From Longimicrobiales bacterium (lineage in GTDB: Bacteria; Gemmatimonadota; Gemmatimonadetes; Longimicrobiales; Gaopeijiaceae), in the NCBI GenBank assembly GCA_965204735.1, contig OZ242008.1, positions 2,240,001-2,304,000 of the forward strand: a DNA stretch of 64,000 bases, written 5' to 3'. A model generated the notes under the pieces. It searched no databases, was not told the DNA's origin, and worked only from the letters and a program-made list of their open reading frames with translations. Shown piece after piece: positions 6,001 through 59,039 of this stretch. How positions within the stretch are numbered: the first letter of the stretch is position 1; each line of letters starts with the position of its first letter. Both the position numbers and the translations under genes were made by a program.

Positions 6001-7331
6001 TCGTGCGCCGCCAGCGACAGGATCGCGTTCGTCGACGTGCCCTGCCGGCGGATCGCGCCCCCGGGTATCGTCAGCGCGTTCGCGCCGATGCTGATCCCGG
6101 TCGAATCCCTGTCCGCCGCCACGACCGTGTAGTTGAAGTACAGCGAGTGGGCGGTAAACGCGTAGAAGGTCGCGCTTCTCGTGTTCGCCCCGATGGTCAA
6201 GGCCAGCCGCGGCCACTGAGTGTGCCAGCTGATCGGCCTGTCGAACGTCACCTTCACCCTGATGACGTCTTCCAGCCCGAAGGTGCTGTCCGCCGCAGCC
6301 TGCGTCATGACAGCGCCTTGTGCGGTGATGTATTCCACGGCGGATACGACCGGCGCCGTCACCTTGGTGCCGTCCACCTTGAAGGCCACATTGTTCGTGA
6401 CCTGGTGGTCAGCCAGCGACAGGTCGGCGTTCGTCGTCGTCCCCGCGGCAACGACCCGGGCTCCGCCAGGCAGCGTCAGCGCGTTCGCGCCGATGCTCAA
6501 CCCGTCCGAGTCGCTGTCCGCCGCCACGACCGTGTAGCAGAAGATCAAGAAGGACGCCACTGAGTTGCACAGCGGCGCACTCCGCGTCTGCGACCCGATG
6601 TTCAGCGCCAGCTGCGGCGTTCCCGAGCCGCTCACGTCCCTGCTGAATCTGACGCCCACCCTGATCCGGTCGCCCACCCCGTAGACGCTGTCGGCCTGTT
6701 CGAGGTTCGCTAGGAGGATCTGGACTCCGCGGGTCGGATGAAGGAACCAAACGGACACCACGGCGGGAACGTCGCCCTGCACCTTGTGGGCCGTCGCATT
6801 CGAGATTGCATGGGTGCCCAGCCCCAGGTTCGCGGCCGTCGCGCCGCCCGCGATCTGGATCGTACCGCTGTTGAGTGCCAGCGCGCTCGCGCCGATGCTG
6901 ATCCCGTCCGCATCGACGTCCGTGGTCGCTACCGTGTAGCGGAAAGTCAGCGTGCTCGTGCCCGTCCCGCTTGCGTAATTCGCCTGCTGCGTCGCCGCGC
7001 CGATCGTCAGCGCCAGCTGCGGCGTGCCCGTCACGTCCACCGACTGGTCGAAACGAACTTCGACCCCGATCACGTCGGTCGCCGCGTACGTCGAGTCGAC
7101 GCCCGCGTTGCTGCTGATCGACACGCCGCTCACGTTCGGCGCCTGGCCGCTCGCGGCGACCGGCAACCCGGCGGCAACCAGCCCGGCGACCACCAGCGCC
7201 AGGCCGAGAGCCGAAAGAAGCCTTCGCACTACCCACATGGCACGCCACCTGCATCCAGCTTTCGTCCGAGATGGCGAATACTTATTATGGCGAAGGGGGG
7301 GGGGGGGGGGGGGGGCGAAATGGAAGCTCAT
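1..7331 (-). CDS. Giant Ig-like-repeat surface protein/adhesin, gene A (5' part only; continues beyond left edge; >2,440 aa)
   Basis: Read manually on the minus strand from ATG 7331 (GGAG 10 nt upstream): MSFHFAPPPPPPLRHNKYSPSRTKAGCRWRAMWVVRRLLSALGLALVVAGLVAAGLPVAASGQAPNVSGVSISS. Alternative start ATG 7238 (AGGTGG upstream). A signal-peptide-like segment is followed by ~19 repeats of the same family as gene B. The domain-ending KV motif is in one frame at 162, 921, 1674, 2436, 3243, 4008, 4800, 5973, 6375 and 6780. Not in the ORF track because there is no stop in the window. Confidence 0.9.
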   Translation of the reverse strand, partial: MSFHFAPPPPPPLRHNKYSPSRTKAGCRWRAMWVVRRLLSALGLALVVAGLVAAGLPVAASGQAPNVSGVSISSNAGVDSTYAATDVIGVEVRFDQSVDVTGTPQLALTIGAATQQANYASGTGTSTLTFRYTVATTDVDADGISIGASALALNSGTIQIAGGATAANLGLGTHAISNATAHKVQGDVPAVVSVWFLHPTRGVQILLANLEQADSVYGVGDRIRVGVRFSRDVSGSGTPQLALNIGSQTRSAPLCNSVASFLIFCYTVVAADSDSDGLSIGANALTLPGGARVVAAGTTTNADLSLADHQVTNNVAFKVDGTKVTAPVVSAVEYITAQGAVMTQAAADSTFGLEDVIRVKVTFDRPISWHTQWPRLALTIGANTRSATFYAFTAHSLYFNYTVVAADRDSTGISIGANALTIPGGAIRRQGTSTNAILSLAAHDNTDNAAFKVDGTKEVAPNVSGVSIASDPGSDSAYAEGNVIEVKVDFDRPVDVTGTPQVALGIGTQTRQAGYAAGTGTNSLRFRYTVVVADADADGISIGASALALNGGTIELKGGSANANLGLGGHAISNAAGHRVTGDVPYVTTIFIANPQGVQIFHAGTDSVFGSGDVVRVIVGFNTNVRIATTTATQAQLALGIGTQTRQAPLCGQNPRFAFFCYTVVAADRDSTGISIGANALTFPAGSGAYIRRQGTTTDANVSLADHTFTNNVAYQVDGTVEVAPNVSGVTISSDPGADSAYAEGNVIEVKVDFDRPVDVTGTPRVALGVDTLTRQAEYAAGTGTKSLRFRYTVVVADMDTTGVSIGASALALNGGTIRIAGGTTAANLGLGSNAISNAAGHKVTGDVPYVTDMFFVNAQWTQTFQAGTDSVFGLGDEIRVAVEFNTNVRIASTTATQAQLALGIGTQTRQAPLCGQTVRYAIFCHTVVAADRDSTGISIGATALTFPAGSGAYIRRQGTTTDANVSLAGYEVTNDMAFQVDGAQEAAPNVSGVSISSDAGADSTYGTGDTIEVKVDFDRPVDATGTPQVALGIGTQTRQADYSSGTGTRSLRFRYTVAATDRDTTGVSIGASALALNGGTVRIAGGTAAANLGLGTNVIANAAAHKVDGAQGPPGVTGVSMGSPPTGDTFERGDAIVVTVTFNRAVAVTGTPQVRLWLGAATRSAGYASGSGTATLTFSYTVVQADADADGASIGANALVLNGGTIRRMGTTTDAVLGLGASAVTNSAGHKVSGATFTASSPSGLAITSAPAADATYVQGDTIEVEVSFVRPVTVTLPVPQLALAIGDSTRQATYASGSGTKTLEFRYVVAASDADGDGIGVGSSALTLQGSGTIVDARDGSTAASLGLGSHAIANAGAHKVAGDVPYVTSAFFMSATLLAGINYASTDSVYGLGDLIRVGVGFNTGVTATGTPSLALGIGSQTRSAALCGTTGGGVILVFCYTVVAADADSTGISIGASALTLPGGATIRATGTTTDARLTLAPWNFADAVAYQVDGTKEVAPVVSGVSITSAPASDSTYGRTEAIEVEVEFERSVDVTGTPGATTLGTPYVLITVGSVSRFAYYAGGTGTRTLRFAYTVVAADADSTGISIGASALALNGGAIRIAGGTTNASLGLGTHAISNAAAHKVDGNLGPPGVNALTISSPVVGDVFERGETIAVELEFNRAVDVTGTPRLALTIGSATRQASYASGTGTTGLLFQYVVASGDADADGLSIGAGALTLSGGTIRLAGGTLDATLGLGASAVTNSGGHQVSGSTFTTPAVTAVTVSSAPASGQTYQLGEQIEVKVAFGRPVAVTGTPRLALTIGTVTRQAVYDSASSKVDTLVFGYAVRPSDADADGLSIGASALTLNGGAIADVRPGAAAAALGLGSSAVTNAAAHKVNGGLGPPGVTGLTVASPPTGTTFERGDTVVATVRFNKSVDVTGTPQLALGIGAQTRQAAYASGTGTTSLVFRYVVVAADVDADGLSVGASALTLNGGTIDVAGGTTDALLSLEHQAFSNFLVVNGGTFTAATVAGVSITSAPASDSTYGRTEQIEVEVTFNRRVMVTDTPRVALTIGSQTRQAEYASGTGTKTLTFGYVVAAADADANGISIGASALALNGGTISDARDTTMAAGLGLGSYAISNAAAHKVDGAQGPPGVTGLVVASPPVGDTFERGDVIAATVTFNRPVDVTGTPQLALGIGTQTRQASYASGTGTTALVFQYTVVTADVDADGLSIGASALALNSGTIRLSGGTLDATLGLSTHAVTNSTGHKVAGGTFTASSVSGVTISSAPSSGDTYGLGEEIEVEVTFARPVNVTGTPQLALTVGAVTRQAEYASGTGTKTLTFGYEVAAADADSDGVSVGASALALNSGTINDARDGSTAASLGLGSSAIANAASHKVDGALGPPGVSALSIGSPHVGDTFERGETIEVKVAFNKAVAVTGTPQLALGIGS
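7295..7315 (-). repeat. G21 (poly-C on coding strand) homopolymer, candidate phase-variation tract of gene A
   Basis: 21 consecutive G counted at 7295-7315. In frame between ATG 7331 and the rest of gene A, encoding A-PPPPPP-L. Confidence 0.85.
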
Positions 7332-7402
7332 CTTGGCCAAGCTCCGGGAAGGTGGGCGAACGCCGAAGGACAGCACCGTTGGCGGCATGTATCGGTCGGT
7401 CG

Positions 7403-7411
7403 AATATAGCA
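7403..7411 (-). promoter_or_regulatory. Putative extended -10 promoter (TGC-TATATT) for gene A
   Basis: Minus strand reads TGCTATATT about 70 nt upstream of ATG 7331, in an AT-richer intergenic patch. The -35 match is weak. Confidence 0.4.
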
Positions 7412-7557
7412 GGTTGGTCATCTCCACTCCACGCCTTGGGTCGAAGTCATTTGGCGAAGAGGCACTTCCATCGCGGCACCAGCCCCCATGCGGGCCATCC
7501 CGCCACCGGCAAAGAACTCGCAGAAGCTGAACACCCGGGGACTCGTCTTGGGCGTCG

Positions 7558-8073
7558 CTACCGTGGCGACCCTTTGGGCGAAGCAGAGCCTTCCTCCGAT
7601 TTCCACAGTGGAAAAGCGCCTGCTTCTGGATCCCCAGGAAAGAACAGACCCTTTTCGCGATCTGCTCGTTCAGCCTTCTGCCAAGCGTCCAGCAGATCAT
7701 CCCCTCCCCCTTCCGGGGAAGACGGGGCGACACGCGTCCGCTCGGACAGCACCCCGCCGTTGTACGAGCGAAGCAGCTCTTCATGAGCCGCCAAGGTCAA
7801 CTCCATAAAGACACGCGCCCGCTCGGACAGCACGCCGTCGTTGTACGAGCGAAGCAGGTCTTCATGAGCCGCTGCCAGATCTGCGAGATCCTCTGCGCTG
7901 ACCCCCTCGACGGCCTGATCCTCAACGGCCTGGTCCGGCATGGGGGCGTCGCCCCCGCATGCGAGGACCGCGCCGCTGGCTATGAGAACGAGGGCCATGA
8001 CGGACCGCGCCACCACGCGCCCGCCGACCCGAGCGAACGCCCCGTAACAGGCAGCCTTCTTCGACCTGGACAT
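7558..8073 (-). CDS. Hypothetical lipoprotein with an internal 27-aa-period tandem repeat
   Basis: Strong SD AAAGGAGG before ATG 8073. Hydrophobic stretch with lipobox-like VLAC. Repeats AAHEDLLRSYNDGVLSERARV / AAHEELLRSYNGGVLSERTRV. Confidence 0.6.
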   Translation of the reverse strand: MSRSKKAACYGAFARVGGRVVARSVMALVLIASGAVLACGGDAPMPDQAVEDQAVEGVSAEDLADLAAAHEDLLRSYNDGVLSERARVFMELTLAAHEELLRSYNGGVLSERTRVAPSSPEGGGDDLLDAWQKAERADREKGLFFPGDPEAGAFPLWKSEEGSASPKGSPR

Positions 8074-8181
8074 AAGACAACCTCCTTTGCGGAAAACTGC
8101 CTTTGGGGGACCCGAGCGGCCCCCAGCGATGCCGACAGGCTGGCCCCGCCACGGCGGCCGGCCTCGGTCGGTGTCGACCAC

Positions 8182-9024: not shown

Positions 9025-9069
9025 GTGCGGCTCCTCGGCTGGCGGACTCGGGCTCGGCGTCCGGCGGGA

Positions 9070-10053
9070 CTAGGACTCGGAGTCGGCGGGCGAGTCGGGG
9101 TCGCCGGCGGCGATGGCGCGGCGCATGTGGGTGTCGGACTCCACGTTGCGGTACTTGGCGTAGTCCATGACCCCCAGGTTGCCGCTGCGGAAGGCGTCCG
9201 CCATCGCCAGCGGAACCTTCGCCTCCGCCGCCACGACCTCGGCGCGCATCTCCTCGACCCGCGCCTTCATCTCCTGCTCCTGGGCCATCGCCATCGCTCG
9301 CCGCTCCTCGGCCCGAGCCTGGGCCACCCGCTTGTCGGCCTCGGCCTGGTCGGTCTGGAGCTCGGCGCCGATGTTCTTCCCCACGTCCACGTCGGCGATG
9401 TCGATGGAGAGAATTTCGAACGCCGTCCCCGAGTCCAGCCCCTTCTGCAGCACGGTCTTGGAGATCGCGTCGGGGTTCTCGAGCACGGCCTTGTGACTGT
9501 TGGCGGAGCCGATCGTCGACACGATCCCCTCGCCGACCCGGGCCAGGATCGTCTCTTCGCCGGCGCCCCCGACCAAGCGGTTGATGTTGGCGCGCACCGT
9601 GACCCGGGCCACGGCGATCAGCTGGATGCCGTCCTTCGCCATCGCCGCCACCCGGGGCGTCTGCACCACCTTCGGGTTCACCGAGACCTGCACCGCCTCG
9701 AAGACGTCGCGGCCCGCCAAGTCGATTGCGGCGGCCTGCTGGAACGGAAGCTCGATGTTGGCCTTGTCGGCGCTGATCAGCGCCCGCACCACCCGGTCCA
9801 CGTCGCCCCCGGCCAGGTAGTGCGCCTCCAGGTGGGACACGTCGAGGGGGAGGCCGGCCTTCGTGGAGGCGATCAGGGGCCGCACGACCGCAGGAGGGCT
9901 GACCTTGCGGAGACGCATCCCCACCAAGCTGCCCAGCCCGAGCCGGACGCCGGCGAAGAGCGCCTCGATCCACAGTCGGACGGGCACGGCCCAGCTCAGG
10001 ACGGCGAGGCCTACGGCGACGAGCGCCAGGATCAGGATCGGGAAGAGTTCCAT
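9070..10053 (-). CDS. floA: Flotillin-like protein FloA (UPF0365/YqfA)
   Basis: Family motifs [71 protein letters not shown]. Confidence 0.95.
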
Positions 10054-10131
10054 GGGGGAGAGCGCTCCGGTTGCTTGAGTCGGTGGAGAGTTGGATGAAC
10101 TAGGGGGAACCCAGGTCGCGGGACAACGGCT

Positions 10132-11583: not shown

Positions 11584-11814
11584 TGGACATCCTCCTTCTG
11601 CTTCGACGCCCTTCTGCTTCGCCGCCTGCCGCCCGGGCGAAGCCAAGGCCGGCAGCGGCGCTCCTGCCTTCGTCGAAGCTACGTTGTCGCGCCCGGAAAC
11701 AATCTACGGCAACGACACCGCTTCCGCCCGGCAGCGGCTCGCCGTCGCAGCGCCGGCCTCGGCGTCCCAGCGGCCCGGCCTCTCGGAGCCTGCTGGTTAT
11801 CTTACGACGACGAC

Positions 11815-11865: not shown

Positions 11866-11885
11866 ACCCAAAACAGGTGACCCCC

Positions 11886-12686: not shown

Positions 12687-12702
12687 ACGGATGGGAGACG
12701 CC

Positions 12703-17373: not shown

Positions 17374-17374
17374 C

Positions 17375-18905: not shown

Positions 18906-21080
18906 TCAGTCTTGGTCGAACTTGATCCTGCCGAGGAGTCCTAGGCGGCGTTCCAAAGGCAAGCGACCGTCGGCGACTTGTTCTCCGAAGAAGTCGAGGA
19001 GCAGGCTCATTCCCGGCGCCTGGGCATCTTCGGTGGCCTTGCCGCTCAAGATCGCCCACTGGGTTCCCACGTTCAGTCGGTAGCCGGCCGGGCCTTCTCG
19101 GCTCCAGCGGCCGAAGGGCTTGAGCTGGCTGCCGCCGGGCAGGAACACCCCGTAGCTCAGCTCCATGGCCAAGCGCTCGGGCGCCCAGCCGGGGACGGCC
19201 CTGGTTGCGGAAAGGCCGTTGCTTGCCGGGCCGGGAACCACCGGAAGGCCGGCCGCCGGATCATCGCCTTGGGCTGCCGGGTCGCCGTTGGCGGAAGCGC
19301 CGCCGCCTGGCGCTGCCGGACCCGCTGCGCCCAGGCCCGCGCCGAGGCCCGACACGCCGGCGTTCCGCCACACGTCGCTGCCGCCCTGCCACAGCGTCTG
19401 GGCGCCGCCGGAGGCGTTCCCCCACGACGGCTCCAGCGAGAACGACAGGCCGCCGTCTTCGCGTCCGGGCTGCAGGCGCAACGCGACGCCGGCGCCCCAC
19501 TCCTTGAAGTTCCGGTCCTGGTGGATCAGCAGCATCCGGCCACGGGCGTCCAGGCTCAGGCCGCTGCCCGCGTGCGTGAAGCCCAGCTCGGCGCCCGCTT
19601 CGGCGCCCATTCCCGTCTCCGCGTCGCCCCGGTCGTAGCGTCCGCCCACCTCGATGCGCGTCCGCATGGCGACGCTGCCGCCGGACCATTGCCCGCCCAG
19701 CTCGGGCGCCAGCCGCACCCGCTGGGCGTCGGCCTTCACGGCAACCACATGTCCGTTCGACGCGTCCGTCGTCATGCGCACCGCGAAGGCGTCGGCCTTC
19801 AGCGCCAGGCCGCCCACCAGCCGCTGGCGCACGCCCAGCGCGCCCATCCGCATGTCCAGGTCGGCGTCGTAGGTGGGGCCCGTCTCGCCCACGTTGGCGG
19901 CGCCCCGCCCCGCGCCGGCCAAGCCCCAGATGCCGAAGCCGCCCTGGGACGACCAGCTGGCGTAGGGGTAGAGGCTGTTCAGGTGGGCCTTCGTCTTGCC
20001 CACGCCGTTGATCCCGCTCTCGTAGTTCGCCGCCATGTCGCTGCGCGAGCCGGCCAAGCCCATCAGGAAGCCCGAGCCGAAGCGGTAGTCCAGGCCCAGG
20101 TAGGCCGAGCGGGTGCGGCCGTCCATGGCGAAGTCGTCTTCGGGACGGCCCTCGAACTCGCCCACGTTGGCTTGGCCCCACAGCGTCCAGCCGGCCTGGG
20201 AGGCCGTCTGCGCCGGGGACGCGCTGGGCAAGCCGGCGTCGGTGCCGTCACCCTCCGCGACGGCGGCGCCTTGCCCGTCGGGCGAGCCGCCGAAGGAGAG
20301 CTGGAACGAGCTCCGGGAGCGGAGGTCGCGGCCCGTCAGCGGGCTGAAGGCGATGCCGCCGCGTTCGCGCTCGGCGGGCAGCGCGTCCTCTTCCCGCTGG
20401 CCCTGGTACGAGCCGCCCAAGCCGAGGGCGCCGTGCGGAGCGCCGCCCATGTCCGCCGTGGCGTCGCCAAAGAGAAGCGCCGCCAAGTCCAGTGTCCCGC
20501 CCGGGATGCCGCCGGGTCCCGAACCGGCGACGCCCGGGTGGGTGATCTGGAGCCCCAGCAGCCCCGTTGCGTCCCGCACCAGCGACTCGAGGCCGCAGCG
20601 GCCGCCCGAGACGCCCCCGCCCAAACCCGCGCCGGCGTGGGCCGAGGCCGTGCTGGCCTGGTCCGAGCCGCCTTGGTCTTGGCCTGAGCCGCCCTGGCGC
20701 GAACCGTCTTGGCCTGAGCCGCCATGGCCTTGGTCCGCACCGCCTTGGTCCGAACCGTCCTGGCCTGGGCCGCCCTGGCCCGGGGCCGAGGCACCCTGGC
20801 CTTGGTCCGCACCGCCTTGGCCCGCGTCCGCGACGCCAGCCGCTCCACCGTCCCCGACCGCTCGGGACGAGGATGTGCCGCTGGACGCGACGCCCGAGCC
20901 GCGGCCGCCGCCGAACGCGACGCAGCTCAGCGAACGCCCGCCCAGCTGCACGTGCGAACGGCCCAGCGAACCCGACGACTCCAGACCCAACCGACCGCCG
21001 ATCGCATCGACCGTCTCCGTCCCCAGCGACCGACCGAACGCCGCCAGCGTCAGCTTCAGCGCACGCGCCCGATCCGAACG
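18906..21080 (-). other. C-terminal autotransporter-type outer-membrane beta-barrel region of gene B
   Basis: Alpha-linker LKLTLAAFGRSLGTETVDAIGGR, then WTLWGQ...SAYLGLDYRF...LYPYASW...GGRYDRGDAETGMGAEAG...EWGAGVALRL...LSFSLEPSWG; aromatic residue near the C-terminus. Confidence 0.75.
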
Positions 21081-57000: not shown

Positions 57001-59039
57001 CCGGTGACCGTCACCGGCGCCGTGAACCCGACTTCCACGCGAACCGCCTCGCCGGCGCCGTAGGTGTCTCCGCTCGCCGGCGCGCCGACGACCGCCACCG
57101 AACTCACGGTGGGCGTGGTGGCGGTCGTCCCGACCACCCGGTGGCCCGACGCATTGGATATGGCGTGGCTTCCCAGATCCAGGTTCGCGGCGGCGCCGGC
57201 CGTGCTCCGAATCGTCCCGCCGTTCAGTTGCAGGGCGGTCGTCCTGATGCTGATCCCGTCGGGGTCGAGATCGCGGCTGGTCACCACGTACCCGAAGTGC
57301 AGCGACTGGCCCGACGTTCTGCGCAACGTCGCGAACGCAGGCCCGCCGCCGAAAGCGATCTGCAACCGGGGACTGCCGACGACCCGGATCGGAACCGCGG
57401 CAGCGAACTCGACCTCCACCTCGATCAGCTCGCCGCCCCCGTACACTTGGGCGCTCAACGAAGGAGTGCTGGTGATGCGCACGCCGCTCACGCTCGGCGC
57501 GGTTGCCGAGGCGCCGTTCACCTTGTGGCTCGCATTGGCCGAGAAGGCGGCGGCCCCCAGGCCGAGCCCGGCGTTCCGCGTTCCGCCGACCTCCTTGATC
57601 GTCCCGCCGTTGAGCGCGAGCGCGTTGGCGGCGACGCCGATCCCGTCCAAGTCCGAATCCCCCGCCTGCACGACGTACCGAAACCCGATGCTGTTCGACC
57701 CGACGCTCTCGTAGGCGGCGTGGCGCACGGCGCTGCCGACCGTCAGCGCCAGCCGAGGCGCGCCGGTCAACGCGATCGGCGCGCTGAACTGCACTTCCAG
57801 TTGGACAACCTCGCCGGCGCCGTAGGTGTCGCCCGCAAGAGGCGTGCCGACGAAGCGCACTGCCGACACCAGCGGAAGTGTGGTCGGCGTCGCCTTGGCT
57901 TCGCTCGTCGAGCCGGCCCCGGCGCCGTTCCTGGCCCGGAGCTGAAACTTGTACTTGCTTTCATTCGTCAGCGGACGGACCACGTGGCGGGTGGTGGTGG
58001 CGTCGCTGCCCGCGATCGTCGTCCAGCTCGACGGGTAGCTGGCCGTATCCAGGGCGTGGCGAACTTCGTAGCTGCCGATGGTGGAGTTCCCGGGGTCGGT
58101 CCACGTCAGCGTCGCTTGGCCCGGCGCCGCCGTCGCGGCTAGCCCGGCGGGGGCGGCCGGGGCGGCGAGCGCGCCGTTGACCTTGTGCCCGGCGGCGTCG
58201 ACGATGCGGTGCCGGCCGATCGTCATGGTGGGGTGGCCGCCCCAGGCGTAGAAGAGATCGGCGTCGCTCAGCGCGTTGGGACCGATGCTGATCCCGTCGC
58301 TGTCCACGTCCGCCGTTTGGACGGTGTAGCTGAACGTATGCGTGGCCTGACCACGAGCGGTGTAGTTCCATGTCGCCCGTCGGCTGGCGCCGCCGATCGT
58401 GATGTCCAGGTACGGATGGCTCAGACCAGCGTAGCGGACGCTGTTATTCCACCTGACCGCTACCACAATCGTCTCGCCGGCGGCGTACGTGTCGCCCGTC
58501 GGCGAACTCGTGATCGAAACGCCGCTGATCGGCACGTTGGCCGTACTGACTCTCGTCCTGCTCGCCCCGCCGCAGTCAGCGCCGGCGCAGGCCCTGATTT
58601 CGAATTGGTACCGCCTGGGGCTGCTCAGGCCTCCGACCGTGGCCGAAGTCGTGCTGCTGTCGCTGCTTGCGACGTCCGTCCATTGATTGGGGAGATTGGT
58701 TCTGTACAAGGCGTAGCGGTACTGGTACTTGGTGATCGCCGCGTTGCCCGGGTTGTCCCAGCCCAGATCGATCGACGAGGTGGTGGCTTGGTGGGCCCAG
58801 AACCCGGTCGGCGCCGCAGGCGCCTGAGCGGCGGCAGGGCCTGCCGGGGCGAACACCGACGCAACTCCGGCGAACGCGAGGGCCGCGACCACGCAAGACC
58901 GCTTGGCTTGATGCCAGGCTTGGCGCCAATCGGAACCCGGCAAGCCGAACAAGCGCGCGCCCGTTCCTCGAATCACTGGCATCGCGACGGTTGCGGGGGA
59001 CCAAACAAAGGGGGGGGGGGGGGGGGGGGGCGGAGACAC
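18906..59039 (-). CDS. Giant autotransporter-like adhesin, gene B (~13,370 aa): signal peptide, 6 FN3, ~90 Ig-like repeats, 5 cadherin, beta-barrel
   Basis: Uninterrupted ORF in the track (18906-59663). The upstream ~200 codons overlap a plus-strand gene, so the start is placed at GTG 59039 (alternatives ATG 59147 and ATG 58982). Signal peptide ...VVAALAFAGVASVFAPAGPAAAQ. Repeats of type SGDTYGAGETIxVxVxF...VTGTPQLALTIG...YASGTGTxxLxFxYxV..DADADGISIGASALALNGGTI...HKVDG. Cadherin motifs A.D.D and NVNE.P.F. C-terminal amphipathic beta-strands ending GRIKFDQD. Confidence 0.93.
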   Translation of the reverse strand: MSPPPPPPPPFVWSPATVAMPVIRGTGARLFGLPGSDWRQAWHQAKRSCVVAALAFAGVASVFAPAGPAAAQAPAAPTGFWAHQATTSSIDLGWDNPGNAAITKYQYRYALYRTNLPNQWTDVASSDSSTTSATVGGLSSPRRYQFEIRACAGADCGGASRTRVSTANVPISGVSITSSPTGDTYAAGETIVVAVRWNNSVRYAGLSHPYLDITIGGASRRATWNYTARGQATHTFSYTVQTADVDSDGISIGPNALSDADLFYAWGGHPTMTIGRHRIVDAAGHKVNGALAAPAAPAGLAATAAPGQATLTWTDPGNSTIGSYEVRHALDTASYPSSWTTIAGSDATTTRHVVRPLTNESKYKFQLRARNGAGAGSTSEAKATPTTLPLVSAVRFVGTPLAGDTYGAGEVVQLEVQFSAPIALTGAPRLALTVGSAVRHAAYESVGSNSIGFRYVVQAGDSDLDGIGVAANALALNGGTIKEVGGTRNAGLGLGAAAFSANASHKVNGASATAPSVSGVRITSTPSLSAQVYGGGELIEVEVEFAAAVPIRVVGSPRLQIAFGGGPAFATLRRTSGQSLHFGYVVTSRDLDPDGISIRTTALQLNGGTIRSTAGAAANLDLGSHAISNASGHRVVGTTATTPTVSSVAVVGAPASGDTYGAGEAVRVEVGFTAPVTVTGSPTVSLTVGSLAKTAAYQSGSGSKKLAFRYVVRSADRDADGVSVFAMALNSGTIRSAAGANATLALGAHAVTNASGHKVNGSTATVPAVRAASIASAPASGDTYGAGDTISVQIGFTTPVSVTGTPRVALGIGERTRHAEYASGTGTGTLTFSYVARATDRDRDGISVGSGALTLNGGSIVSESAQNATLGLGTHAISSASGHKVDGSRTMPAVTNVLVTSRPDSGDTYAAAETISVRVSFGFAVTVTGTPRLALTIGSATRHAAYASGNGTSALTFSYETLATDLDADGISVGANALELNGGSIRSGTGAAATLGLGSHAFSNVPAHKVNGTRTVPAVASVAIASSPASDSTYGAGETISVQVAFNLAVTVTGAPRLAVTVGSATRYAAYASGSGSKTLTFSYETVAGDRDNDGISIAAGALGLNGGTIRSAGGATAALALGTHAISNSAAHKVNGSTTAPTVASVTISSTPRGGTYTLGATISVQVGFSIAVTVTGTPRLALTIGSATRQASYASGSGTKTLTFSYTVVAADRDGNGISVGATALGLNGGTIRSATAINARLGLGGHAISDASDHAVDGRKVAAAPSGLTATPLGATQARLDWINPGNSLITGYQYRYRPSDGGAFTGWTNIPSSSATTTSGEVTVSNGGRPYRIELRATVGTAAGDAAFTTIGLFRARINRVEITSSPRTGASYRTGEEIRVRFHVIDGHDIDSDSWGPILSLQIGSSTRTSQGESGGLTMHYTYFDYRYTVVSDDHDPDGISIGPNALDFGTWDPQAFTYTRELYVYRPSFSLVSPAIGTNQIVNAPGHKVNASATPTGSVPAAPTGLTATPGNAQATLNWTDPQDTTIVGYQVRHGPAAGSYSGWTDISGSSATTTSYTVGSLTNGAAYKFQVRAANANGTGSESSEVRATPVAVTVVSGVRFANGPRTGDTYGAGEVVRVEVDFSDSVAVTGEPLLELTIGDSVKQAFGVRLPSRPSTIHFRYTVETADVDADGIGIAAGALKLNGGTIIGVNSRAALLGLGAYAYAANASHKVDGSTGTVPNVDLVRITSTPVIGDVYGAGEQIEAEVRFGALVPIRVVGAPRLALAIGDSTRQATLTRTAGQSLHFRYTVRSSDSDADGIGIAAGALTLNGGTIRSTVGTNASLNLGSHAITAAATHKVTGSSATAPAVTGAAVTSTPVSGDTYGAGEKIGASVTFRLPITVTGSPQLALTIGTQTRQATYLRTAGRTLHFEYAVQAADRDANGIGIGASALTLNGGTIRSDAGAAATLGLGSHALSDASGHKVNGAVAPNPFVSAVRIASRPVASADSYGGGERIEVEVEFAAAIAIRVSGAPQLAIGIGSQTRQAALLETTGQVLRFGYVVQRADLDANGISILAGALALNGGTIRSAAGAGAVLGLGAHAIEDAAGQKVLGSNNATPAATSVEISSSPDDGDTYGATDTISVAVGFNVPVTVTGTPQLAVTIGSGTGQASYSSGSQTKTLTFDYEVGATDVDADGIGVGGSALTLNGGTIRSATAANATLSLAGHAIANAAGHKVNGTTTAPTVSSVAAASQPAIGGSYGAGETISVQVGFDLAVTVTGTPQLALSLDADTVQAAYAGGSGTKTLTFDYTVRATDRDADGFTVERGALTLNGGTIQSAGGADAALRLNVELLSDQIDGSVTPPEVASARFDTSPASGDTYGAGELIAVRIGFQIPVTVTGSPQLALGIGAATVQASYAGGSGSKSLAFSYVVQSADVDADGVSVGPTALALNGGTIRSAAGTNARLALGRTHQITNSSGHKVDGSTATPPSVTGARVASSPASGDTYGGGERIEVAVEFSIPVVVTGVPELALTIGDSTRQASYLIGSRTETLTFGYVVRATDVDADGFSVADSALSLAGGTLQSSFGAAAALSLGSHALAGVAAGKVNGATATVPAVVSAAIFSDAGSDSTYGAGDGIAVRIGFQIPVTVTGGPQLALGIGTGTAQASYAGGSGTKTLTFRYTVRATDVDSAGISVGASALSLNGGTIRSGTGTNAALGLGANAIASAAAHKVDGATTVPAVLAVVIASDAGADSTYTAGDTISVQVGFQIPVTVTGSPQLALGVGAATAQASYAGGSGTKTLTFDYVVQAADADSTGISVGASALALNGGTIRSGAGTNAALGLGTHAIADAAAHKVDGAGSPPRVDGVAVGSPVVGDTFERGEAISVTLTFDKAVDVTGTPQLALTIGAATRQASYASGTGTTSLVFRYTVVAADADADGLSIGAGALGLNGGTIDMAGGTTDAVLGLGSLAVSNSSGHKVAGGTFTAAAASGVTITSSPASDSTYVLGEQIEVEVTFARPVAVTGTPQLALTIGAATRQADYASGTGTKTLSFAYAVAAADTDADGIGIGASALGLNGGAIADARDSTTVASLGLGANAISNSAAHKVNGARGPPGVTGLAVGSPVVGDTFERGDTIAATVTFNKAVDVTGTPQLVLTIGAATQQAGYASGTGTASLVFRYVVASGDADADGLSIGAGALGLNGGTIDVAGGTTDALLGLGAHVLSNSSGHKVAGGTFTAAAVSGVAIASSPASDSTYGLNERIEVKVAFSRRVSVTGTPQLALTIGAATRQAEYASGTGTDTLSFAYTVGVADADSDGLGIGASALTLNGGAVADARDGATAAGLGLGTNAIAAAAAHKVDGTRGPPTVTGVAVGSPVVGDTFERGDTIAVTVTFHKAVDVTGTPQLALTIGAATRQAGYASGTGTASLVFRYVVASGDADADGLSIGASALTLNGGTIDEAGGTTDAALGLGSHAVSNSSGHKVAGATFTAAAVTGVTITSRPASDSTYGAGDRIEVEVTFARSVAVTGTPQLALTIGAATRQADYVAGTGTKTLAFRYAVAATDSDSDGISIGASALTLNGGGIADARDGATAAGLGLGANAVSNSAAHKVNGSLATLAAPSGLTATPTASGAIQLRWTDPSDTTITKYQVRHRNESSSGSFTAWADVASSGASTTSHTVSSLTDQVDYRFELRAVAGSRAGRASFALARPSDIWVTGVRITSSPTADDTYGPGQTIEVTVSFSAFRPRVTGSPVLKIGVGTATRDAAYSGTGLTSARFQYTVTAADADSDGISIGPNALDFTAGWVNTRFSIASPTIGRYAIANSASHKVDGLLGTPAAPTGFSASPGNAQVTLNWTDPSDTTLTGYQFRQAIATEPFSRWTDISGSDASTTSHIVPSLSNGTEYKFQVRAQNSVGAGHASEEARATPTSAPVVTAVRFVGTPVSGDTYGAGEVVRVDVEFSAVLTVTGSPRLALTIGAAARQAAMERVRERAVRFAYTVRSGDVDADGIGVAAAALTLGGGTISGPGGASAQLSLGARAFTANAAHKVNGATATAPFVDFVQITSSPSSGDTYGGGERIDVHVRFGAAVPITVVGSPRLALTVGAQTRQATLSRASGQSLHFGYVVQAADADADGVSIGASALTLNGATIRSGAGAAAGLGLGAHAVADASGHKVSGSTATAPAVSAVSITSAPASGDTYGAGEKITARVSFQLPIVVAGTPRLALAVGSQTRQAEFVRLSGQSMYFDYTVLSSDADADGISIAANALSLNGGTILSTIGTAAALGLGAHAVANASGHKVSGSTATTPEATSVSVTSAPVSGDTYGAGERIEVKVGFNLEVRTTGSPQLVLGVGAATRQAALLGGDGAGLTFGYVVQSADVDADGISVGASALGLNGGTIASTAGATAALGLGGHAIANASAHKVNGASATTPAVVSASVTSAPASGDTYYAGEAIAVAVGFDVPVAVTGAPQLALTIGAQTRQAAYVSGTNTKTLTFRYTVVLADSDSTGIAVGASALGLNGGTIRSGVGTNAGLGLGAHAIADAAGHKVDGTSTAPTVNAASIASTPATGDSYGAGETIAVEIGFNFPVTVTGTPRAALTIGAATRHADYASGSGNTSLRFEYVVDATDADADGISLAAGALELNGGTVRSSVGTDAALGLGSYAIADASAHKVNGAATAPAVTGATIVSDAGNDSTYAAGDAVSVEVAFQIPVTVTGTPQLALTIGTGVGQAAYAGGTGTKTLTFSYTVRATDVDGNGIAVAANALTLNGGALQSGAGTNAALSLGTFAIADAAAHKVDGTSTVPVVTGVAVASSPAGSDTYGAGETISVRVGFSIPVTVTGAPQLAVAVGSATRQVAYASGSGTTALVFDYVTLATDRDDDGISVGAGALTLNGGTIRSGSGTNATLALGSHAIANASGHKVNGAATAPLVSSMSISSAPASGDTYGGGEKITVSVVFQIPVTVTGTPQLALTVGNATRQADYASGSGTAALAFDYVVQTADSDSNGISVGPTALTLNGGTVRSAAGTNANLSLFVNAFSNSPDHKVDGSSATTPTVRAATIGSDAGADSTYFAHDAIVVEVGFSVPVTVTGAPQLVLTIGAQTRQASYASGSGTTALTFRYVVTAADSDSDGIAVGASALALNGGTIRSSVGADATLGLGANAIAAAAAHKVDGSQGPPGVTGVTVGSPVVGDAFERHDTIAVTVTFDQAVDVTGTPQLALTIGTATKQASYAGGTGTTALVFRYVVASGDVDADGLSIGAGALALNGGTIDEAGGTTDAVLGLGAHAVSNSSGHKVAGNTFTAASVSGVTISSTPPGTDSTYGLGDVIEVQVTYTRPVVVQGTHLLKLAVNIGTQTPYASYASGTGTKTLTFRYTVQASDSDSDGIGLPARALTLSGATISDARDGTTATSNGLGTHVITAAAAHKVDGSQGTAGVTALAIGSPPVGDAFERGDTIVVTVTFNKAVDVTGTPQLALGIGAATRQASYASGTGTAALVFRYVVVQADADADGLSIGAGALALNGGTIDVAGETTDALLGLGSRAVSNSSGHKVAGGTFTAASVSGVSITSSPSSDSTYGFGEQIEVQVAFNRRVSVTGTPQLALTIGAQTRQAAYASGTGTTTLTFRYAVGTADSDSDGIGIGASALALNGGAIADARDGSTAAGLGLGTNAIAAAAAHKVDSARGPPGVAGVAVASPVVGDTFERGDTIWVTVTFNKAVDVTGTPRLFLTIGTQTPTASYASGTGTTALRFRYVVAAGDADADGLSVAASALHLAGGTIDAAGDTTNASLSLGAHTLSNSSGHKVAGGTFTAAAVSGMSITSSPAADSTYGLGEQIEVQATFSRRVSVTGTPQLALTIGAQTRQAEYASGTGTTVLTFRYAVAVADADSDGIGIGASALTLNGGAIADARDGSTAAGLGLGANAVTAAAAHKVDGAQGAAGVTGVSIGDPVVGDTFERADTIAVTVTFNKAVDVTGAPQLALTIGAVTRQAAYASGTGTASLVFRYVVVQADADADGLSIGASALSLNGGTIDVAGETTDALLGLGSHAVSNSTGHKVAGGTLTGPAPSGVAIASTPSSDSTYGRTERIEVEVTFVRPVVVTGTPQLALTIGTQTRQASYASGTGTATLAFRYTVQGTDRDSTGLSVGASALALNGGTIADARDGTTAATLGLGAHAVSNAAAHKVDGSLGTPGVIGVSFADDPYNAEYERGDAIDVRVSFSRTVDVTGTPRLALGIGSQTRQAAYASGTGTNTLVFRYVVVQSDRDIDGISIGASALTLNGGTIRAAGTTMDAVLGLGSHAITNSSSHQVNGSLFTGLAVEDVVVRSVPASDSTYKLGERIELDVLFQRAVVVTGTPQLALGIGSATRQASYASGSGTKRLRFRYAVAAADVDADGISLSASALTLNGGTINDARAGGSAAGLGTSASVFSNDAAHKVNGGVGAPSVSALTIGAPVVGDVFERGDTIVATVEFNAAVAVTGTPQLALGIGSATRQAGYASGTGTASLVFRYVVVAADADADGLSVGASALALNGGTIRRTGTTTDAVLDLGAHAVTNSAGHKVAGGTFTAAAVSGVSIASVPGSDSTYVRTERIEVEVSFARPVTVTGTPQVALGIGSQTRQAAYASGSGTKTLTFRYAVQAADSDSDGISIGASALGLNGGTIVDARDGATAAGLGLGSHAIANAAAHKVDGARGPPGVSGLSIASPVVGDTFERGDTIAVTVTFTDSVDVTGTPRLALGIGSATQQASYASGTGTASLVFRYVVASGDADADGLSIGASALALNGGMIDVAGGTTDALLGLGSHAVSNSTGHKVAGGTFTAASVSGVTIASTPASDSTYAETEEIAVEVSFNRRVTVTGTPQLALAIDTLTRQAEYVDGTGTATLTFAYQVVAADADSTGLSIGASALGLNGGTIADARDGTTAASLGLGSNAVSDAAAHKVDGSLPPPPTRTTGAPEARGLAIGAPAVGDTFERGETIEVELVFHRAVDVTGAPQLALAIGAATRQAEYASGTGTDTLVFRYVVAIGDSDADGISIAASALTLNGGTIRASGEALDAVLDLGAYAIANSGGHKVAGGTFTTPAVSAVTISSAPAADSTYHLGERIEVKVAFGRPVTVTGAPQLALTIGSQTRQASWESATSKADTLVFGYAVRPADADTTGISIGSSALALNGGTINDVRAGATAASLGLGSNAIVNAAAHKVDGSLGPPGVTHLAVTAPLSAQTFERGDTIIASVRFNKAVDVTGTPQLALGIGSATRQASYASGTGATELEFRYVVVQSDADADGISIGANALTLNGGTIDVAGGTADALLSLERLAISNAAGFRVAGGTFTAPAVSWAGITSTPSDGSTYELGEQIDVTVTFNRNVTATGAPQLALTIGSQTRQAAYDSAASGSRELEFRYVVAAGDADANGISVGASALALNGGTIVDPRDGSTAANLGLGGNAIVDAAGHAVDGSRGPPGVSGASIASPPTGDTFERGDTVAATVTFNKAVDVTGTPQLALTIGTQTRQASYAGGTGTAALVFQYVVVQADADADGLSIGASALALNGGTIDVAGGTTDAVLGLGSHAVSNSTGHKVAGGTFTASSVSGVTISSSPASGDTYGLGEQIEVEASFVRPVSVTGTPQLALDVGTDTVQADYASGTGTKTLTFSYTVAASDADSDGISIGASALALNGGTIVDARDGSTAASLGLGSSAIANAASHKVDGAQGPPGVTALSVASPVVGDTFERGDTVAATVTFNKAVDVTGTPQLALTIGSATRQASYAGGTGTASLVFRYVVASGDADADGLSIGAGALSLNGGTIDVAGGTTDALLGLGASAVANSTGHKVAGGTFTAASVSGVAITSAPASDSTYGRTERIEVEVAFNRRVAVTGTPQVALTIGSQTRQAAYASGSGTTTLAFRYTVAAADADSTGIGIGASALTLNGGAIADARDGATAASLGLGTNAIANAAAHKVDGSRGPPGVTALSISAPTVGDTFERGETIEVSLLFNRAVDVTGTPRLALGIGSATRQASYAIGTGTDTLVFRYVVASGDADADGISIGASALALNGGTIRVAGGTLDATLGMGASAVVNSTGHKVAGGTFTTPAVSAVTVSSTPASASTYQLGESIEVKVAFGRPVAVTGSPQLALTIGTQTRQASYMAASSKADTLVFAYAVRPVDADADGISIGASALALNGGTIADVRPGAAAAALGLGASAVTNAAAHKVNGSLGPPGVVGLSVAAPLVGATFERGDTVAATVTFNKAVDVTGTPQLALSIGSQTRQASYASGTGTTALVFRYVVVQADADADGLSIGASALALNSGTIDVAGGTTDALLSLAHHAISNDGTRRVAGGTLTAASASGVAITSAPASDSTYGRTERIEVEVTFDRRVAVTGTPQVALTIGSQTRQADYASGTGTTTLTFGYTVAAADADANGISIGASALGLNGGTIADARDASEAAGLGLGSNAIANAAAHKVDGNQGPPGVSGLVVASPPTGDTFERGDVIAATVTFNRAVDVTGTPQLALGIGTQTRQASYASGSGTTSLVFQYTVVQADADADGLSIGTSALALNSGTIRLSGGTLDATLGLGTHAISNSTGHKVAGGTFTAASVSGVTISSAPSSGDTYGLGEEIEVEVTFVRPVSVTGTPQLALGVGTDTVQADYGSGTGTKTLAFSYTVAASDADSDGLSIGASALALNGGTIVDARDGSTAASLGLGSSAIANAASHKVDGAQGPPGVTALSIASPVVGDTFERGDTVAVTVTFNKAVDVTGTPQLALTIGAATRQASYAAGTGTASLVFRYVVASGDADADGLSIGASALALNGGTIDVAGGTTDALLGLGASAVSNNTGHKVAGGTFTAASVSGVAITSAPASDSTYGRTERIEVEVTFNRRVAVTGTPHLALTIGAQTRQAEYARGTGTATLAFRYTVAAADADSTGIGIGASALTLNSGAIADARDGATAASLGLGSNAIANAAAHKVDGSRGPPGVTGLSISAPTVGDTFERGETIEVSLLFNRSVDVTGTPRLALTIGSATRQAIYASGTGTDTLVFRYVVTSGDADADGLSIGASALALNGGTIRVAGGTLDATLGLGASAVTNSGSHKVAGGTFTTPAVSGVTVSSTPASASTYQLGESIEVKVAFGRPVAVTGSPRLALTIGSQTRQASYMAASSTADTLVFGYAVRPADADADGISIGASALTLNGGAINDVRPGSTAAALGLGANAVSNAAAHKVNGSLGPPGVVGLSVASPPVGTTFERGDTVAATVTFNKAVDVTGTPRLALGIGSQTRQASYASGTGTTALVFRYVVVQADADSDGLSIGASALALNGGTIDVAGGTTDALLSLAHHAISNDGARRVAGGTFTAATASGVAITSSPASDSTYGRTERIEVEVTFDRRVAVTGTPQLALTIGSQTRQASYASGTGTKGLTFGYTVVAADADANGISIGASALALNGGTIADARDASEAAGLGLGSNAIANAASHKVDGNQGPPGVIGLVLASPPVGDMFERGDVIAATLTFNRAVAVTGTPQLALAIGAQTRQASYASGSGTTALVFQYTVVTADADADGLSIGTGALALNSGTIRLSGGTLDATLGLGTHAISNSTGHKVAGGTFTASSVSGVTISSAPSSGDTYGLGEEIEVEVTFVRPVNVTGLPQVALTVGAATRQADYASGTGTKTLTFSYEVVAGDADSDGVSVGASALALNSGTINDARDGSTAASLGLGSSAIANAAAHKVDGAQGPPGVTGLLIGAPHVGDTFERGETIEVKVAFNKAVAVTGTPQLQLRFSSGSKQADYASGTGTDTLVFRYVVVAADADADGLGIGASDLRLNGGTIRRSGTATDAVLGLGSHAVIRSTGHKVAGGTFTASAVSGVTITSEPSSDSTYGRTERIEVEVTFTRPVTVTGPPQLALGIGTQTRQAAYASGSGTTTLVFGYTVASADVDSTGLSIGASALALNGGTIADARDGTTAASLGLGSNAIANAASHKVDGSRGPPGVTGLSISAPTVGDTFERGETIDVSMGFNRAVDVTGTPRLALTIGSATRQASYASGTGTDTLVFRYVVASGDADSDGLSIGASALALNGGTIRVAGGMLDATLGLGASAVTNSAGHKVAGGTFTTPAVTAVTVSSTPASASTYQLGESIEVKVAFGRPVAVTGSPRLALTIGTVTRQASYESATSKADTLVFGYAIRPADADTDGISIGASALTLNGGAINDVRPGATAAALGLGANAVSNAASHKVNGSLGPPGVVGLSVAAPPVGTTFERGDTVAATVTFNKAVAVTGTPQLALSIGTQTRQAGYASGTGTTALVFQYVVVQADADADGLSIGASALALNGGTIDVSGGTTDALLSLAHHAISNDGARRVAGGTFTAASASGVSISSAPASDSTYGRTERIEVEVTFDRRVAVTGTPQVALTIGSQTRQANYASGSGTTTLTFGYTVAAADADANGISIGASALALNGGTIADARDASEAAGLGLGSNAIANAAAHKVDGNQGPPGVTGLVVASPPTGDTFERGDVIAATLTFNRAVDVTGTPQLGLGIGTQTRQASYASGSGTTALVFQYTVVTADVDANGLSIGTSALALNSGTIRLSGGTLDATLGLGTHAISNSTGHKVAGGTFTASSVSGVAITSTPSSGDTYGLGEEIEVEVTFVRPVNVTGTPQLALTVGTRTRQAEYASGTGTKTLTFSYMVVAADADSDGLSVGTSALALNGGTIADARDGSTAASLGLGSSAITNAAAHKVDGAQGPPGVTGLLIGSPHVGDTFERGETIEVKVAFNKTVAVTGTPQLALGIGSATKQASYAAGTGTDTLVFQYVVAAADVDADGISIGASALALNGGTVRRLATTTDAVLGLGASAVANSTGHKVAGGTFTASAVSGVAITSSPSSDSIYGRTERIEVEVSFTRPVTVTGVPQLALGIGSQTRQAAYASGSGTTTLAFGYTVQAADADSDGLSIAASALALNGGTIADARDGSTAASLGLGSNAVANAAAHKVDGSRGPPGVTALSISAPTVGDTFERGETIEVSLVFNRSVDVTGTPRLALTIGSATRQASYASGTGTDTLVFRYVVASGDTDADGISIGASALALNGGTIRVAGGTLDATLGLGTSAVTNSGGHKVAGGTFTTPAVSAVTVSSTPASASTYQLGESIEVKVAFGRPVAVTGSPRLALTIGTVTRQADYESATSKADTLVFGYAVRPADADTDGISIGASALTLNGGAINDVRPGAAAAALGLGANAVSNAAAHKVNGSLGPPGVVGLSVDAPPVGTTFERGDTVVATVTFNKAVDVTGTPQLALGVGSQTRQAGYASGTGTTVLVFRYVVAQADADGDGISIGASALALNGGTIDVAGGTTDALLSLAHHAISNDRARRVAGGTFTASSVSEVSIQSSPAGGSTYGLSEQIEVEVTFNRTVTVTGAPQLALTIGSRTRQAAYVSVTAGRQLAFRYEVVAGDADANGLSVGASALTLNGGTIADARDGTTAASLGLGSHAISNDAAHRVDGNQGPPGVSGVTIASPPVGDTFERGDTVVATVTFNKAVAVTGTPQLALTIGAGTKQASYASGTGTASLVFRYVVVTADADADGLSIGASALALNGGTIDVAGGTVDAVLGLGAHAVTNSAGHKVAGGTFTAASVSGVSLTSSPAVATTYGRDEQIEVQVTFNRRVTVTGTPQVALTVGAATRQAGYASGTGTYTLTFRYTVVQADADTDGIEVGASALALNSGTIADARNGTTTAALGLDSHALSAAAGHKVDGTLAGASVTGVAVSSTPESGDTYGLGERIEVEVTFDRAVTVTGAPQLALTVGTATRQANYASGSGTATLSFAYRVQGAGSGGSGTGGVDADADGVGVAATALTLNGATIVNTADGVRPAVLALGSHAIAAAANDKVDGTVEVVPVVVGMTVMSTPGANGLYGPRSVIRVAVTFSRPVEVAGAPQQAGHMSAATAPVRLAIEIGTAVRHASYVSGSGTPVLVFEYVVQPADRDEDGISIPADALTAAGGALRIAGGTTAAVLDLGSYAVENLEEHQVNGAGGTDPVFGRAEYEFELTEDVAGPVVVGTVSATDPFGGEVAYSLAAGDEGLFEVDARTGEVRYVGSGEDAEARSEFVMIVRATADDGERTGDATVTVRLVNVNDAPVFTAERYAFAMAENVAGPLALGVAEAVDLDEGDTLTYRLVAGDADRFEVDGATGEVQYVGSGEDYEGAGPKSWELEVTATDLAGASAKAVVAVALTNVNEGPAFADSAYAFDLAENARGPLLLGEVRATDPDGGDWLSYALTAGDAERFKVNATSGAVQYVGAGEDAETGPGSWELEVTATDRGGLTARARVVVTLEDRNEGPVFVESIWEWELAEHMAGPVELGTVEATDVDAGDTLRYSLSGARAALFDVGESSGVVRYVGAGEDAETGPEGWEFEVVATDRAGLAAVAKVRVLLLDVNEAPAFVDSAYAFDLAENVRGPRELGRVEATDPDRGDALTYTLAQGDAGRFDVNGASGVVRYVGAGEDYEDGPPEFALVVRVTDAGGLTAEAAVVVTLLDVNEGPEAVGSLSPPVLEVGGAPWEVGLGEYFRDPDGDALSYVVVSSLPDVAAASVSGAGRLSVAPQGIGAAVVTVTATDAGGLTATQQASVTVSASRSDRARALKLTLAAFGRSLGTETVDAIGGRLGLESSGSLGRSHVQLGGRSLSCVAFGGGRGSGVASSGTSSSRAVGDGGAAGVADAGQGGADQGQGASAPGQGGPGQDGSDQGGADQGHGGSGQDGSRQGGSGQDQGGSDQASTASAHAGAGLGGGVSGGRCGLESLVRDATGLLGLQITHPGVAGSGPGGIPGGTLDLAALLFGDATADMGGAPHGALGLGGSYQGQREEDALPAERERGGIAFSPLTGRDLRSRSSFQLSFGGSPDGQGAAVAEGDGTDAGLPSASPAQTASQAGWTLWGQANVGEFEGRPEDDFAMDGRTRSAYLGLDYRFGSGFLMGLAGSRSDMAANYESGINGVGKTKAHLNSLYPYASWSSQGGFGIWGLAGAGRGAANVGETGPTYDADLDMRMGALGVRQRLVGGLALKADAFAVRMTTDASNGHVVAVKADAQRVRLAPELGGQWSGGSVAMRTRIEVGGRYDRGDAETGMGAEAGAELGFTHAGSGLSLDARGRMLLIHQDRNFKEWGAGVALRLQPGREDGGLSFSLEPSWGNASGGAQTLWQGGSDVWRNAGVSGLGAGLGAAGPAAPGGGASANGDPAAQGDDPAAGLPVVPGPASNGLSATRAVPGWAPERLAMELSYGVFLPGGSQLKPFGRWSREGPAGYRLNVGTQWAILSGKATEDAQAPGMSLLLDFFGEQVADGRLPLERRLGLLGRIKFDQD
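21085..22880 (-). repeat. Five cadherin-like domains plus one Ig-like (FRDPDGDALSY) domain in gene B
   Basis: Repeated P.F....Y.F.L.E/ ATDPD.GD.L.Y.L / F.V....G.V.YVG.GED.E / V.ATD..GL / L.DVNE. Confidence 0.85.
23700..37900 (-). repeat. Higher-order tandem repeat, 3039-bp (1013-aa, 8-domain) period, ~4.5 units
   Basis: Equivalent TCCACCTTG anchors at 23722, 26761, 29800, 32839 and 35878. Shadow ORFs recur at 27076/30115/33154/36193 and 28150/31189/34228. Confidence 0.9.
59010..59030 (-). repeat. G21 (poly-C on coding strand) homopolymer, candidate phase-variation tract of gene B
   Basis: 21 consecutive G at 59010-59030. In frame: GTG TCT CCG (CCC)7 TTT GTT TGG = VSPPPPPPPPFVW. Confidence 0.85.

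Follow-up and report, generated by a model that had tools for sequence, protein, structure and literature searches.

A candidate translational slippage switch at the starts of giant adhesin-like genes in an uncultured Longimicrobiales bacterium

A 64,000-nucleotide (nt) stretch of DNA from a Longimicrobiales bacterium (positions 2,240,001 to 2,304,000 of contig OZ242008.1, assembly GCA_965204735.1; hereafter, the window) contains two giant genes, A and B. Both lie on the minus strand, as do all of their features described below, and both carry exactly 21 cytosines close to their start (21 guanines on the plus strand, at 7295-7315 in gene A and 59010-59030 in gene B). An initial annotation had reported these runs correctly and proposed that slippage at them turns two adhesin genes on and off. 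Are the tracts switches, and if so, at what step of expression are they read? We put the probability that they form a slippage switch that is read at translation and depends on the reading frame, be it plain or three-state, at roughly two in three. The anatomy that we find comprises a start codon, a few codons, a C run of 13-33 nt, a short stop-free linker, a second ATG, a signal peptide, a giant protein with immunoglobulin (Ig)-like, fn3, and cadherin domains, and an autotransporter-like barrel. Signal peptides were judged by eye from Sec features and are predictions. The label "adhesin" derives from the fn3, cadherin, and Ig-like domains, and binding to host or other cells is likewise a prediction.

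Long C tracts at the 5' ends of giant genes

The window is part of a closed 4.14-Mb genome with 69% GC (G000), probably that of an uncultured, sponge-dwelling bacterium. Apart from the two tracts, the window contains no G or C run of at least 8 nt, in agreement with the initial annotation, which had seen no comparable homopolymer there. Runs of 6 to 11 nt occur 1,419, 168, 15, 1, 2, and 0 times, respectively, in G000, which extrapolates to at most 0.03 runs of at least 12 nt. The genome holds 27 runs of 12-36 nt. Thus, the tracts are not a product of chance. Typical phase-variation tracts are shorter than the 13-36 nt found in these genomes.

Of the 16 G000 genes encoding more than 3,000 amino acids (aa), all of one family, 12 carry at their 5' end a C run that measures 16-33 nt. 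Tracts were found in 14 others of the remaining 2,723 genes in our own crude set of 2,739 gene calls (enrichment p ~1e-22, with one paralog pair merged). The 12 tract-bearing giant genes, of 10-40 kb and 3,400-13,400 aa each, total 210 kb, or 5% of G000. With 12 such genes, the earlier idea that the cell toggles between two adhesins is rejected. The genome-wide scan for runs of at least 12 G that had been recommended also led to restriction-modification (R-M) and DISARM genes and to surface enzymes. Among 150 other genomes of the phylum, many of them fragmented, 89 had no C14 run and five had at least 20, as opposed to 24 in G000; this only places G000 in the upper tail.

We compared G000 with four related Longimicrobiales genomes (G001, G002, G003, and G031), which contain 6-44 runs of at least 12 nt per genome. 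Homologs in these relatives were recognized on the 1.5 kb downstream of the tract. The five genomes together contain 143 tracts, with one G000 paralog pair counted once, and 42 of these lie before giant-gene homologs with C on the coding strand. Three further tracts before giant-gene homologs carry G on the coding strand, and a strict C-on-coding-strand rule was rejected on their account. The design recurs in the relatives, where most flanks are unrelated and the tract lengths differ. Among 42 homologous tract pairs, nearly all are unequal in length, a comparison between species and paralogs and not within species.

The length comparison suggested by the initial annotation is exemplified by gene A. 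Its C21 corresponds to C27 (out of frame) in a paralog elsewhere in G000, to C24 (out of frame) in G002, and to C20 behind an ATG in G031, where a wholly unrelated leader has the same design. The flanks had been described as unrelated. This is true between genes A and B, but the flanks of the gene A paralog are 83-84% identical to those of gene A itself. The repeats are thus far beyond chance, lie at the 5' ends or promoters of surface and defence genes, and differ in length between related copies, as expected of contingency loci.

Might the tracts be stable or neutral by-products that spread with duplicated gene heads and have no effect on expression? Several leaders are indeed homologous (the 33 linkers analyzed below group into 16 clusters), and no population variation was seen. 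However, leaders of the same gene are unrelated between genomes and the start plus tract is kept nevertheless, even where C has become G. The targets also belong to the classic contingency classes of adhesins, R-M/DISARM genes, and surface-modifying enzymes. We therefore assign this explanation very little probability.

A poly-G sequencing or assembly artefact was considered as well. Poly-G contigs pile up on tract A as a depth spike, and in some fragmented genomes of the phylum, numerous runs of this kind lie where contigs end. Against an artefact, the tracts occupy homologous positions in five independently assembled genomes and are tied to gene starts, and contigs of public runs from three studies contain the tract with the correct flank. 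The region had matches in 19 public runs, including sponge and marine metagenomes, and the contigs of four of these were compared at tract A only. In three of the four (X1, X3, and X7), contigs contain tract A with the correct flank on at least one side. The X7 contig covers 7227-7324 with G21 and zero differences but reaches only 9 letters past the tract. Run X1 may be the source sample, and run X4 has no cover of tract A. The artefact is largely refuted, and we give it next to no weight.

Reading frames around the tracts

Both tracts proved to be in frame with the long open reading frame (ORF) a few codons after a possible start, as first annotated. In gene A, the tract begins 16 nt after ATG 7331 (coding strand), occupies codons 6-13 of the upstream-start frame, and reads MSFHFA-P6-L. 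Together with GGAG at 7345-7342, this ATG forms an upstream start (7329-7345) with anti-Shine-Dalgarno (anti-SD) pairing of -5.8 kcal/mol. The bases around it are common to the paralog and the G002 homolog, though the DNA further upstream is unrelated in G002. Similarity to the paralog starts at an extended -10-like element (TG-c-TATATT, 7403-7411), the predicted promoter of gene A. Because of its location, the tract would lie ~80 nt inside the transcript. Consensus sigma-70 scans around tracts A and B returned 0 sites. The 56-nt linker (7239-7294) is free of stops in the gene frame; one of the other frames stops 46 nt before the second ATG, and the other stops 10 nt into it. This second start, ATG 7238, has its own SD sequence (AGGTGG, 7250-7245; -5.9 kcal/mol) and opens a signal-peptide-like segment, MWVVRR...ASG before QA (7146-7250). 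Tract A is likely to lie inside the translated frame, judging from sequence.

The case is less direct for gene B. Its tract begins 9 nt after GTG 59039 (coding strand) and is in frame, reading VS-P8-F. Two upstream starts are candidates, GTG 59039 and GTG 59054 (59037-59054), and both are in frame at C21. GTG 59054 has AGGCGG upstream (anti-SD pairing, -5.8 kcal/mol). GTG 59039 follows TATCAT (59051-59046) by 6 nt, a leaderless-like arrangement. Across G000, TANNNT peaks 5-8 nt before ATG starts (20, 41, 31, and 21 occurrences versus a background of ~5), which suggests a minority of leaderless mRNAs. The genome-wide peak was found for ATG genes and not for GTG genes, and GTG 59039 is therefore a weak start. 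The second start, ATG 58982, has no SD sequence and is followed by a long N-region and the hydrophobic core VVAALAFAG...AAA before QA (58827-58982, by eye). For gene B, these features weakly suggest that the tract lies inside the translated frame.

We next considered the tracts together. An ATG open to the tract was found within 30 nt upstream in 30 of the 42 cases. Dinucleotide shuffles gave 17.7 (standard deviation, 2.5), with 0 of 300 reaching 30; the opposite strand gave 8, and shifted windows gave 6-11. For the linkers, we set aside 4 promoter-type tracts, 3 distal tracts, and 2 without a recognizable signal-peptide start, leaving 33. Between the tract and the signal-peptide ATG, a stop in the gene frame occurred in 0 of the 33, and the other frames had 4 and 12 stops. 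Linkers reduced to one per cluster (n = 16) were also stop-free, where shuffles expect 3.5-4.0 with stops (P = 0.006-0.015; paralogs and congeners share ancestry, so P values overstate the significance throughout). Upstream ATGs pair with the anti-SD about as well as ordinary genes (median of -4.1 versus -3.9 kcal/mol; 11 of 29 at -5 or below). Second ATGs pair weakly (median of -2.4 kcal/mol; 4 of 33 at -5 or below). The clearest control comes from single-start gene families, in which a conserved sequence follows the ATG and tract within a few codons; some copies are in frame and others are out.

Alternatively, the second ATG could be the true start, and the tract could be a variable promoter or 5' untranslated region element that gradually tunes the level of transcript or initiation. 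Four tracts directly precede TTGACA with a -10 element after 17 nt, and in three of the four, in-frame stops lie ahead of the gene. The second ATG is retained in 33 of 35 proximal cases, with the SD pairing noted above at ATG 7238, and TATCAT lies 21 nt before tract B. This explanation does not, however, predict the enrichment of upstream ATGs, the stop-free linkers, or the weak SD sequences at most second ATGs. Furthermore, -10-like elements mostly lie 50-130 nt upstream of the tracts, so the -35/-10 spacing is not involved. We consider this explanation unlikely, though not negligible.

The TTGACA-adjacent tracts would be a transcriptional version of the switch. They belong to one giant-gene subfamily that in four genomes has C19-C33 directly before a near-consensus TTGACA-17-nt promoter (in G000, at 1448582-1448650). 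Promoter-associated poly-C/G tracts are known from Neisseria opc and porA and from Bordetella fim. The four tracts, including the one in G000, resemble these loci, unlike tracts A and B.

How would a switch read at translation work? Slipped-strand mispairing is an established cause of changes in repeat length (PMC5472700, PMC9187656, PMC3711429, PMC2831843). Replication slippage would add or remove tract bases and thereby change the reading frame of the leader. At C21, the leaders of both A and B would be fused to the gene, giving a signal peptide extended by poly-proline (ON). At C20 or C23, the leader would terminate 10 nt inside the second ATG. At C19 or C22, it would stop 46 nt upstream of the second ATG in gene A and 407 nt downstream of it, out of frame, in gene B (OFF), with probable polarity on an mRNA of 15-40 kb. 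Each of the 12 tract-bearing giant genes would switch independently, producing a population with many adhesin combinations that share a C-terminal anchor and differ at their N termini. The gene switched off by a single slip had been put at 40 kb, which fits gene B; gene A measures ~15 kb.

The assembled copies can be sorted by frame. The 29 giant-gene tracts with an upstream ATG comprise 9 that are fused, 16 one base short, and 4 one base long. For 24 hand-picked single-start tracts of the same assemblies, the numbers are 8 (in frame), 5, and 11 (together 16 out of frame). Short and long states are distributed differently in the two groups (Fisher p = 0.006, with related copies and three comparison genes of uncertain start), a contrast that speaks against tract lengths being generally called too short. 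The excess of the short state hints that it is tolerated or is active through re-initiation.

These counts also bear on recoding. Under this explanation, slips of RNA polymerase or the ribosome on the C run would let every genomic length yield a share of full-length protein, and the tract would serve as a damper, with poly-proline stalling included. Homopolymers are known to cause slippage, and CCC-C codons to cause +1 shifts. The runs encode 5-11 consecutive prolines, and elongation factor P is present. However, a +1 ribosomal shift would rescue the one-base-long state, which is the rarest before giant genes (4 of 29), and recoding leaves the tracts in promoters unexplained. We assign it little probability.

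Within the slippage switch, one of the "off" lengths may instead be ON through coupling. In 29 of the 33 linkers, the leader read one base short terminates at +1 to +16 relative to the second ATG (as TGATG, as ATGA, or with a stop codon among codons 3-5). Since a stop is similarly placed in 46% of 1,367 crude ATG gene calls, this pattern is partly ordinary codon content. Translational coupling is recognized by an upstream stop at or beside a downstream start with a weak ribosome-binding site (PMC3711429), and the SD sequence of the second ATG is weak in 29 of 33. A three-state switch is conceivable, although we find it doubtful: a fused leader, a leader that stops on the second ATG so that the ribosome restarts and makes a normal signal peptide, and OFF. 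Tentatively, such a switch would have been rebuilt time and again from unrelated leaders within a genus of sponge symbionts, and it would set the combinatorial display of about a dozen megadalton-scale adhesins.

Several observations weigh against a frame-dependent switch. The contigs of the four public runs break at tract A, and none bridges it by at least 31 letters on both sides; no length alleles were seen within a population. No ATG lies upstream of the tract in gene B, where the candidate starts are GTGs, and 8 of the 42 tracts have no open ATG within 60 nt upstream. With the second ATG retained, the protein may be produced from there and lack the leader; starts at ATG 7238 and ATG 58982, which the initial annotation had named as a refuting case, thus keep some probability, above all in gene A, with its fair SD sequence. 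The TTGACA-adjacent tracts show that not all tracts act by frame. Linkers differ by 1-, 7-, and 8-nt indels, and codon-position differences (14/8/7) have a slight third-position bias that is not informative; the linker sequence is under no visible protein-level selection. Two pattern scans of Joint Genome Institute metagenome contigs, one with the leader of gene A and one with a tract plus signal peptide, gave 0 matches. Consensus sequences of 20-nt homopolymers in long-read assemblies may err by one base, which makes single frame states uncertain. The mismatch repair genes are intact, with MutS and MutL found in all five genomes, and its loss was rejected as the source of the long tracts. The initial proposal of slippage is supported as far as a frame switch is concerned, on the strength of the ATG enrichment, the stop-free linkers, and the single-start and R-M genes. 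It is not supported as plain ON/OFF switching, given the retained second start.

The giant proteins and their C-terminal barrel

Gene A encodes 4,960 aa from ATG 7238. Its passenger of tandem ~125-aa Ig-like repeats occupies 1-7145 and runs left of the window to G000:2232356, 7.6 kb past the edge, and the protein ends in the C-terminal barrel of the family. Gene B encodes 13,358 aa from ATG 58982 in 40 kb. Its ~12,900-aa passenger (20202-58826) contains fn3 domains, Ig-like repeats, and three cadherin domains near the end; Pfam found fn3 in 4 stretches of the first 1,661 aa, Cadherin in 3 stretches, and Big_9. The predicted outer-membrane barrel of gene B maps to 18906-20201. In the two orthologs of gene B, the leaders are unrelated, and a GTG or ATG is followed by a G run (G12 and G22).

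Proteins A and B are 78% identical over the last 500 aa and ~41% identical over 170-aa pieces of the first 500. The giant proteins begin with a charged N-region, a hydrophobic core, and an AxA-like site (by eye) and consist of tandem Ig-like repeats (Atlas, 0.94-0.95; Big_5 and Big_12 on a minority of cluster members). For the barrel and the main repeat, neither Pfam nor NCBIfam returned any family above the cut-off. A TssD match in gene A (E = 1e-4, below the cut-off, 23 aa) was treated as chance.

The C-terminal 431 aa matched autotransporter clusters in Atlas at 0.96 (28 of 30 matches), and PF03797 was found on 2 of 74 barrel homologs. A structure model of the barrel (predicted local distance difference test, 77) has 18 strands. 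Its top structural match is the BrkA beta-domain (Foldseek E = 7e-6; Z = 16.1; root mean square deviation, 4.3; 219 aligned, residues 5-240), and other barrels score within 1-2 Z units of it. On these matches, the barrel is homologous to the autotransporter beta-domain. The barrel of a classical (type Va) autotransporter has 12 strands and a linker helix in the pore, as opposed to the 18 strands of the model, where five more strands follow a disordered insert after the matched part; the upstream helix is outside the model. A tract-less giant gene of 12,945 aa (G000:C1:2772607-2774600) stops before the barrel is complete, apparently by a frameshift that is either real or an assembly error.

Known phase-variable loci and other tract-bearing genes

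Autotransporters switched by slipped-strand mispairing are known from Neisseria meningitidis, where NalP and AusI/MspA have poly-C in the coding region and AutA/AutB have AAGC repeats right after the start codon (PMC5472700). The giant genes resemble them in this respect. They differ in that one genome holds 12 paralogs of 3,400-13,400 aa that have tracts of 16-33 nt and keep a second ATG at their signal peptides, in a candidate switch known from sequence, and in that the organism is an uncultured marine Gemmatimonadota and not a mucosal pathogen. A second parallel is the sortase-dependent pilus of Bifidobacterium breve, also an adhesion structure of a non-pathogenic symbiont. There, the length of a G tract (G10-G12) decides whether the first and second ORFs are fused, with polarity otherwise, and the second ORF lacks active initiation (PMC9187656). 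In the genes described here, by contrast, the second ORF has a conserved ATG of its own, on which one of the off-frame states terminates.

The giant genes differ from known loci in scale (12 genes of 10-40 kb), tract length, and lineage, in that the design has been rebuilt several times behind unrelated leaders, and in that a second start is retained. In a search largely confined to open-access main texts, we found no paper that describes a leader/second-start switch, or phase variation in either Gemmatimonadota or sponge symbionts. A full-text search of a Gemmatimonadota ecogenomics paper (PMC10469786) gave no mention of adhesins or phase variation. Our results point to genome-wide phase variation of the kind seen in mucosal pathogens in an uncultured marine Gemmatimonadota from sponge metagenomes. 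Under a slippage switch, 5% of the genome, encoding 12 giant surface proteins, would be under stochastic control together with phage-defence and surface-modifying genes. This bears on how symbionts of high-microbial-load hosts afford adhesin genes of 10-40 kb and evade host cells or phages. The coupled state, if true, would be a switch design without a match in the literature searched. In practice, short-read assemblies break at such tracts, and gene callers will misplace starts.

Other tract targets in G000 include a type IIG R-M gene, a DISARM DrmMI gene, type I HsdR, SspD-like and PDC-M33-like genes, PMT_2-like and SGNH-like surface enzymes, and an MFS transporter, although several of these matches are weak. 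The type IIG R-M fusion gene (G000:C1:3422133-3426575) contains an internal C tract whose position is shared by all five genomes (C13, C26, C18, C13, and C15) and which is in frame in G000 and G001 and out of frame in G002, G003, and G031. Its homologs in G001, G003, and G031 hold further G runs. A C18 tract splits the DrmMI-like gene (G000:C1:2685711-2689731), and the two halves match adjacent profile positions, 579/598. These internal tracts recall phase-variable R-M genes and phasevarions (PMC7383803, PMC3711429), with type IIG and DISARM in place of type I/III genes.

PMT_2-like and SGNH/AlgX-like paralogs (G000:C1:967590-985243 and 2853444-2854957) carry tracts at the start (C19 out of frame, C14 in frame) or internally (C12, C15), which likely represents variable surface modification. 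A family of small conserved ORFs (~100-110 aa), for which no in-frame upstream ATG was noted, lies behind a C tract in several genomes (C36, C15, C16, and C22-26; in G000:C1 at 1237406 and 3620537). In G003 and G031, families of 60- to 80-aa Cys-containing ORFs begin with a strong SD sequence, an ATG, and C14-C27, with some copies in frame and most out of frame. By their leader motifs, they resemble precursors of ribosomally synthesized and post-translationally modified peptides, and they are possibly a switchable peptide library. In G031, a C20 tract lies ~45 nt upstream of the apparent mutS start (G031:C1:2516939-2517400); no such tract was seen at mutS in G000. Its position makes the G031 gene a candidate switchable mutator.

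The neighbours of the giant genes in the window are ordinary. They include a FloA flotillin-like gene (9070-10053), a sodium:solute symporter gene (59632-61092), and a weak NHL/beta-propeller match at 61211-63907.

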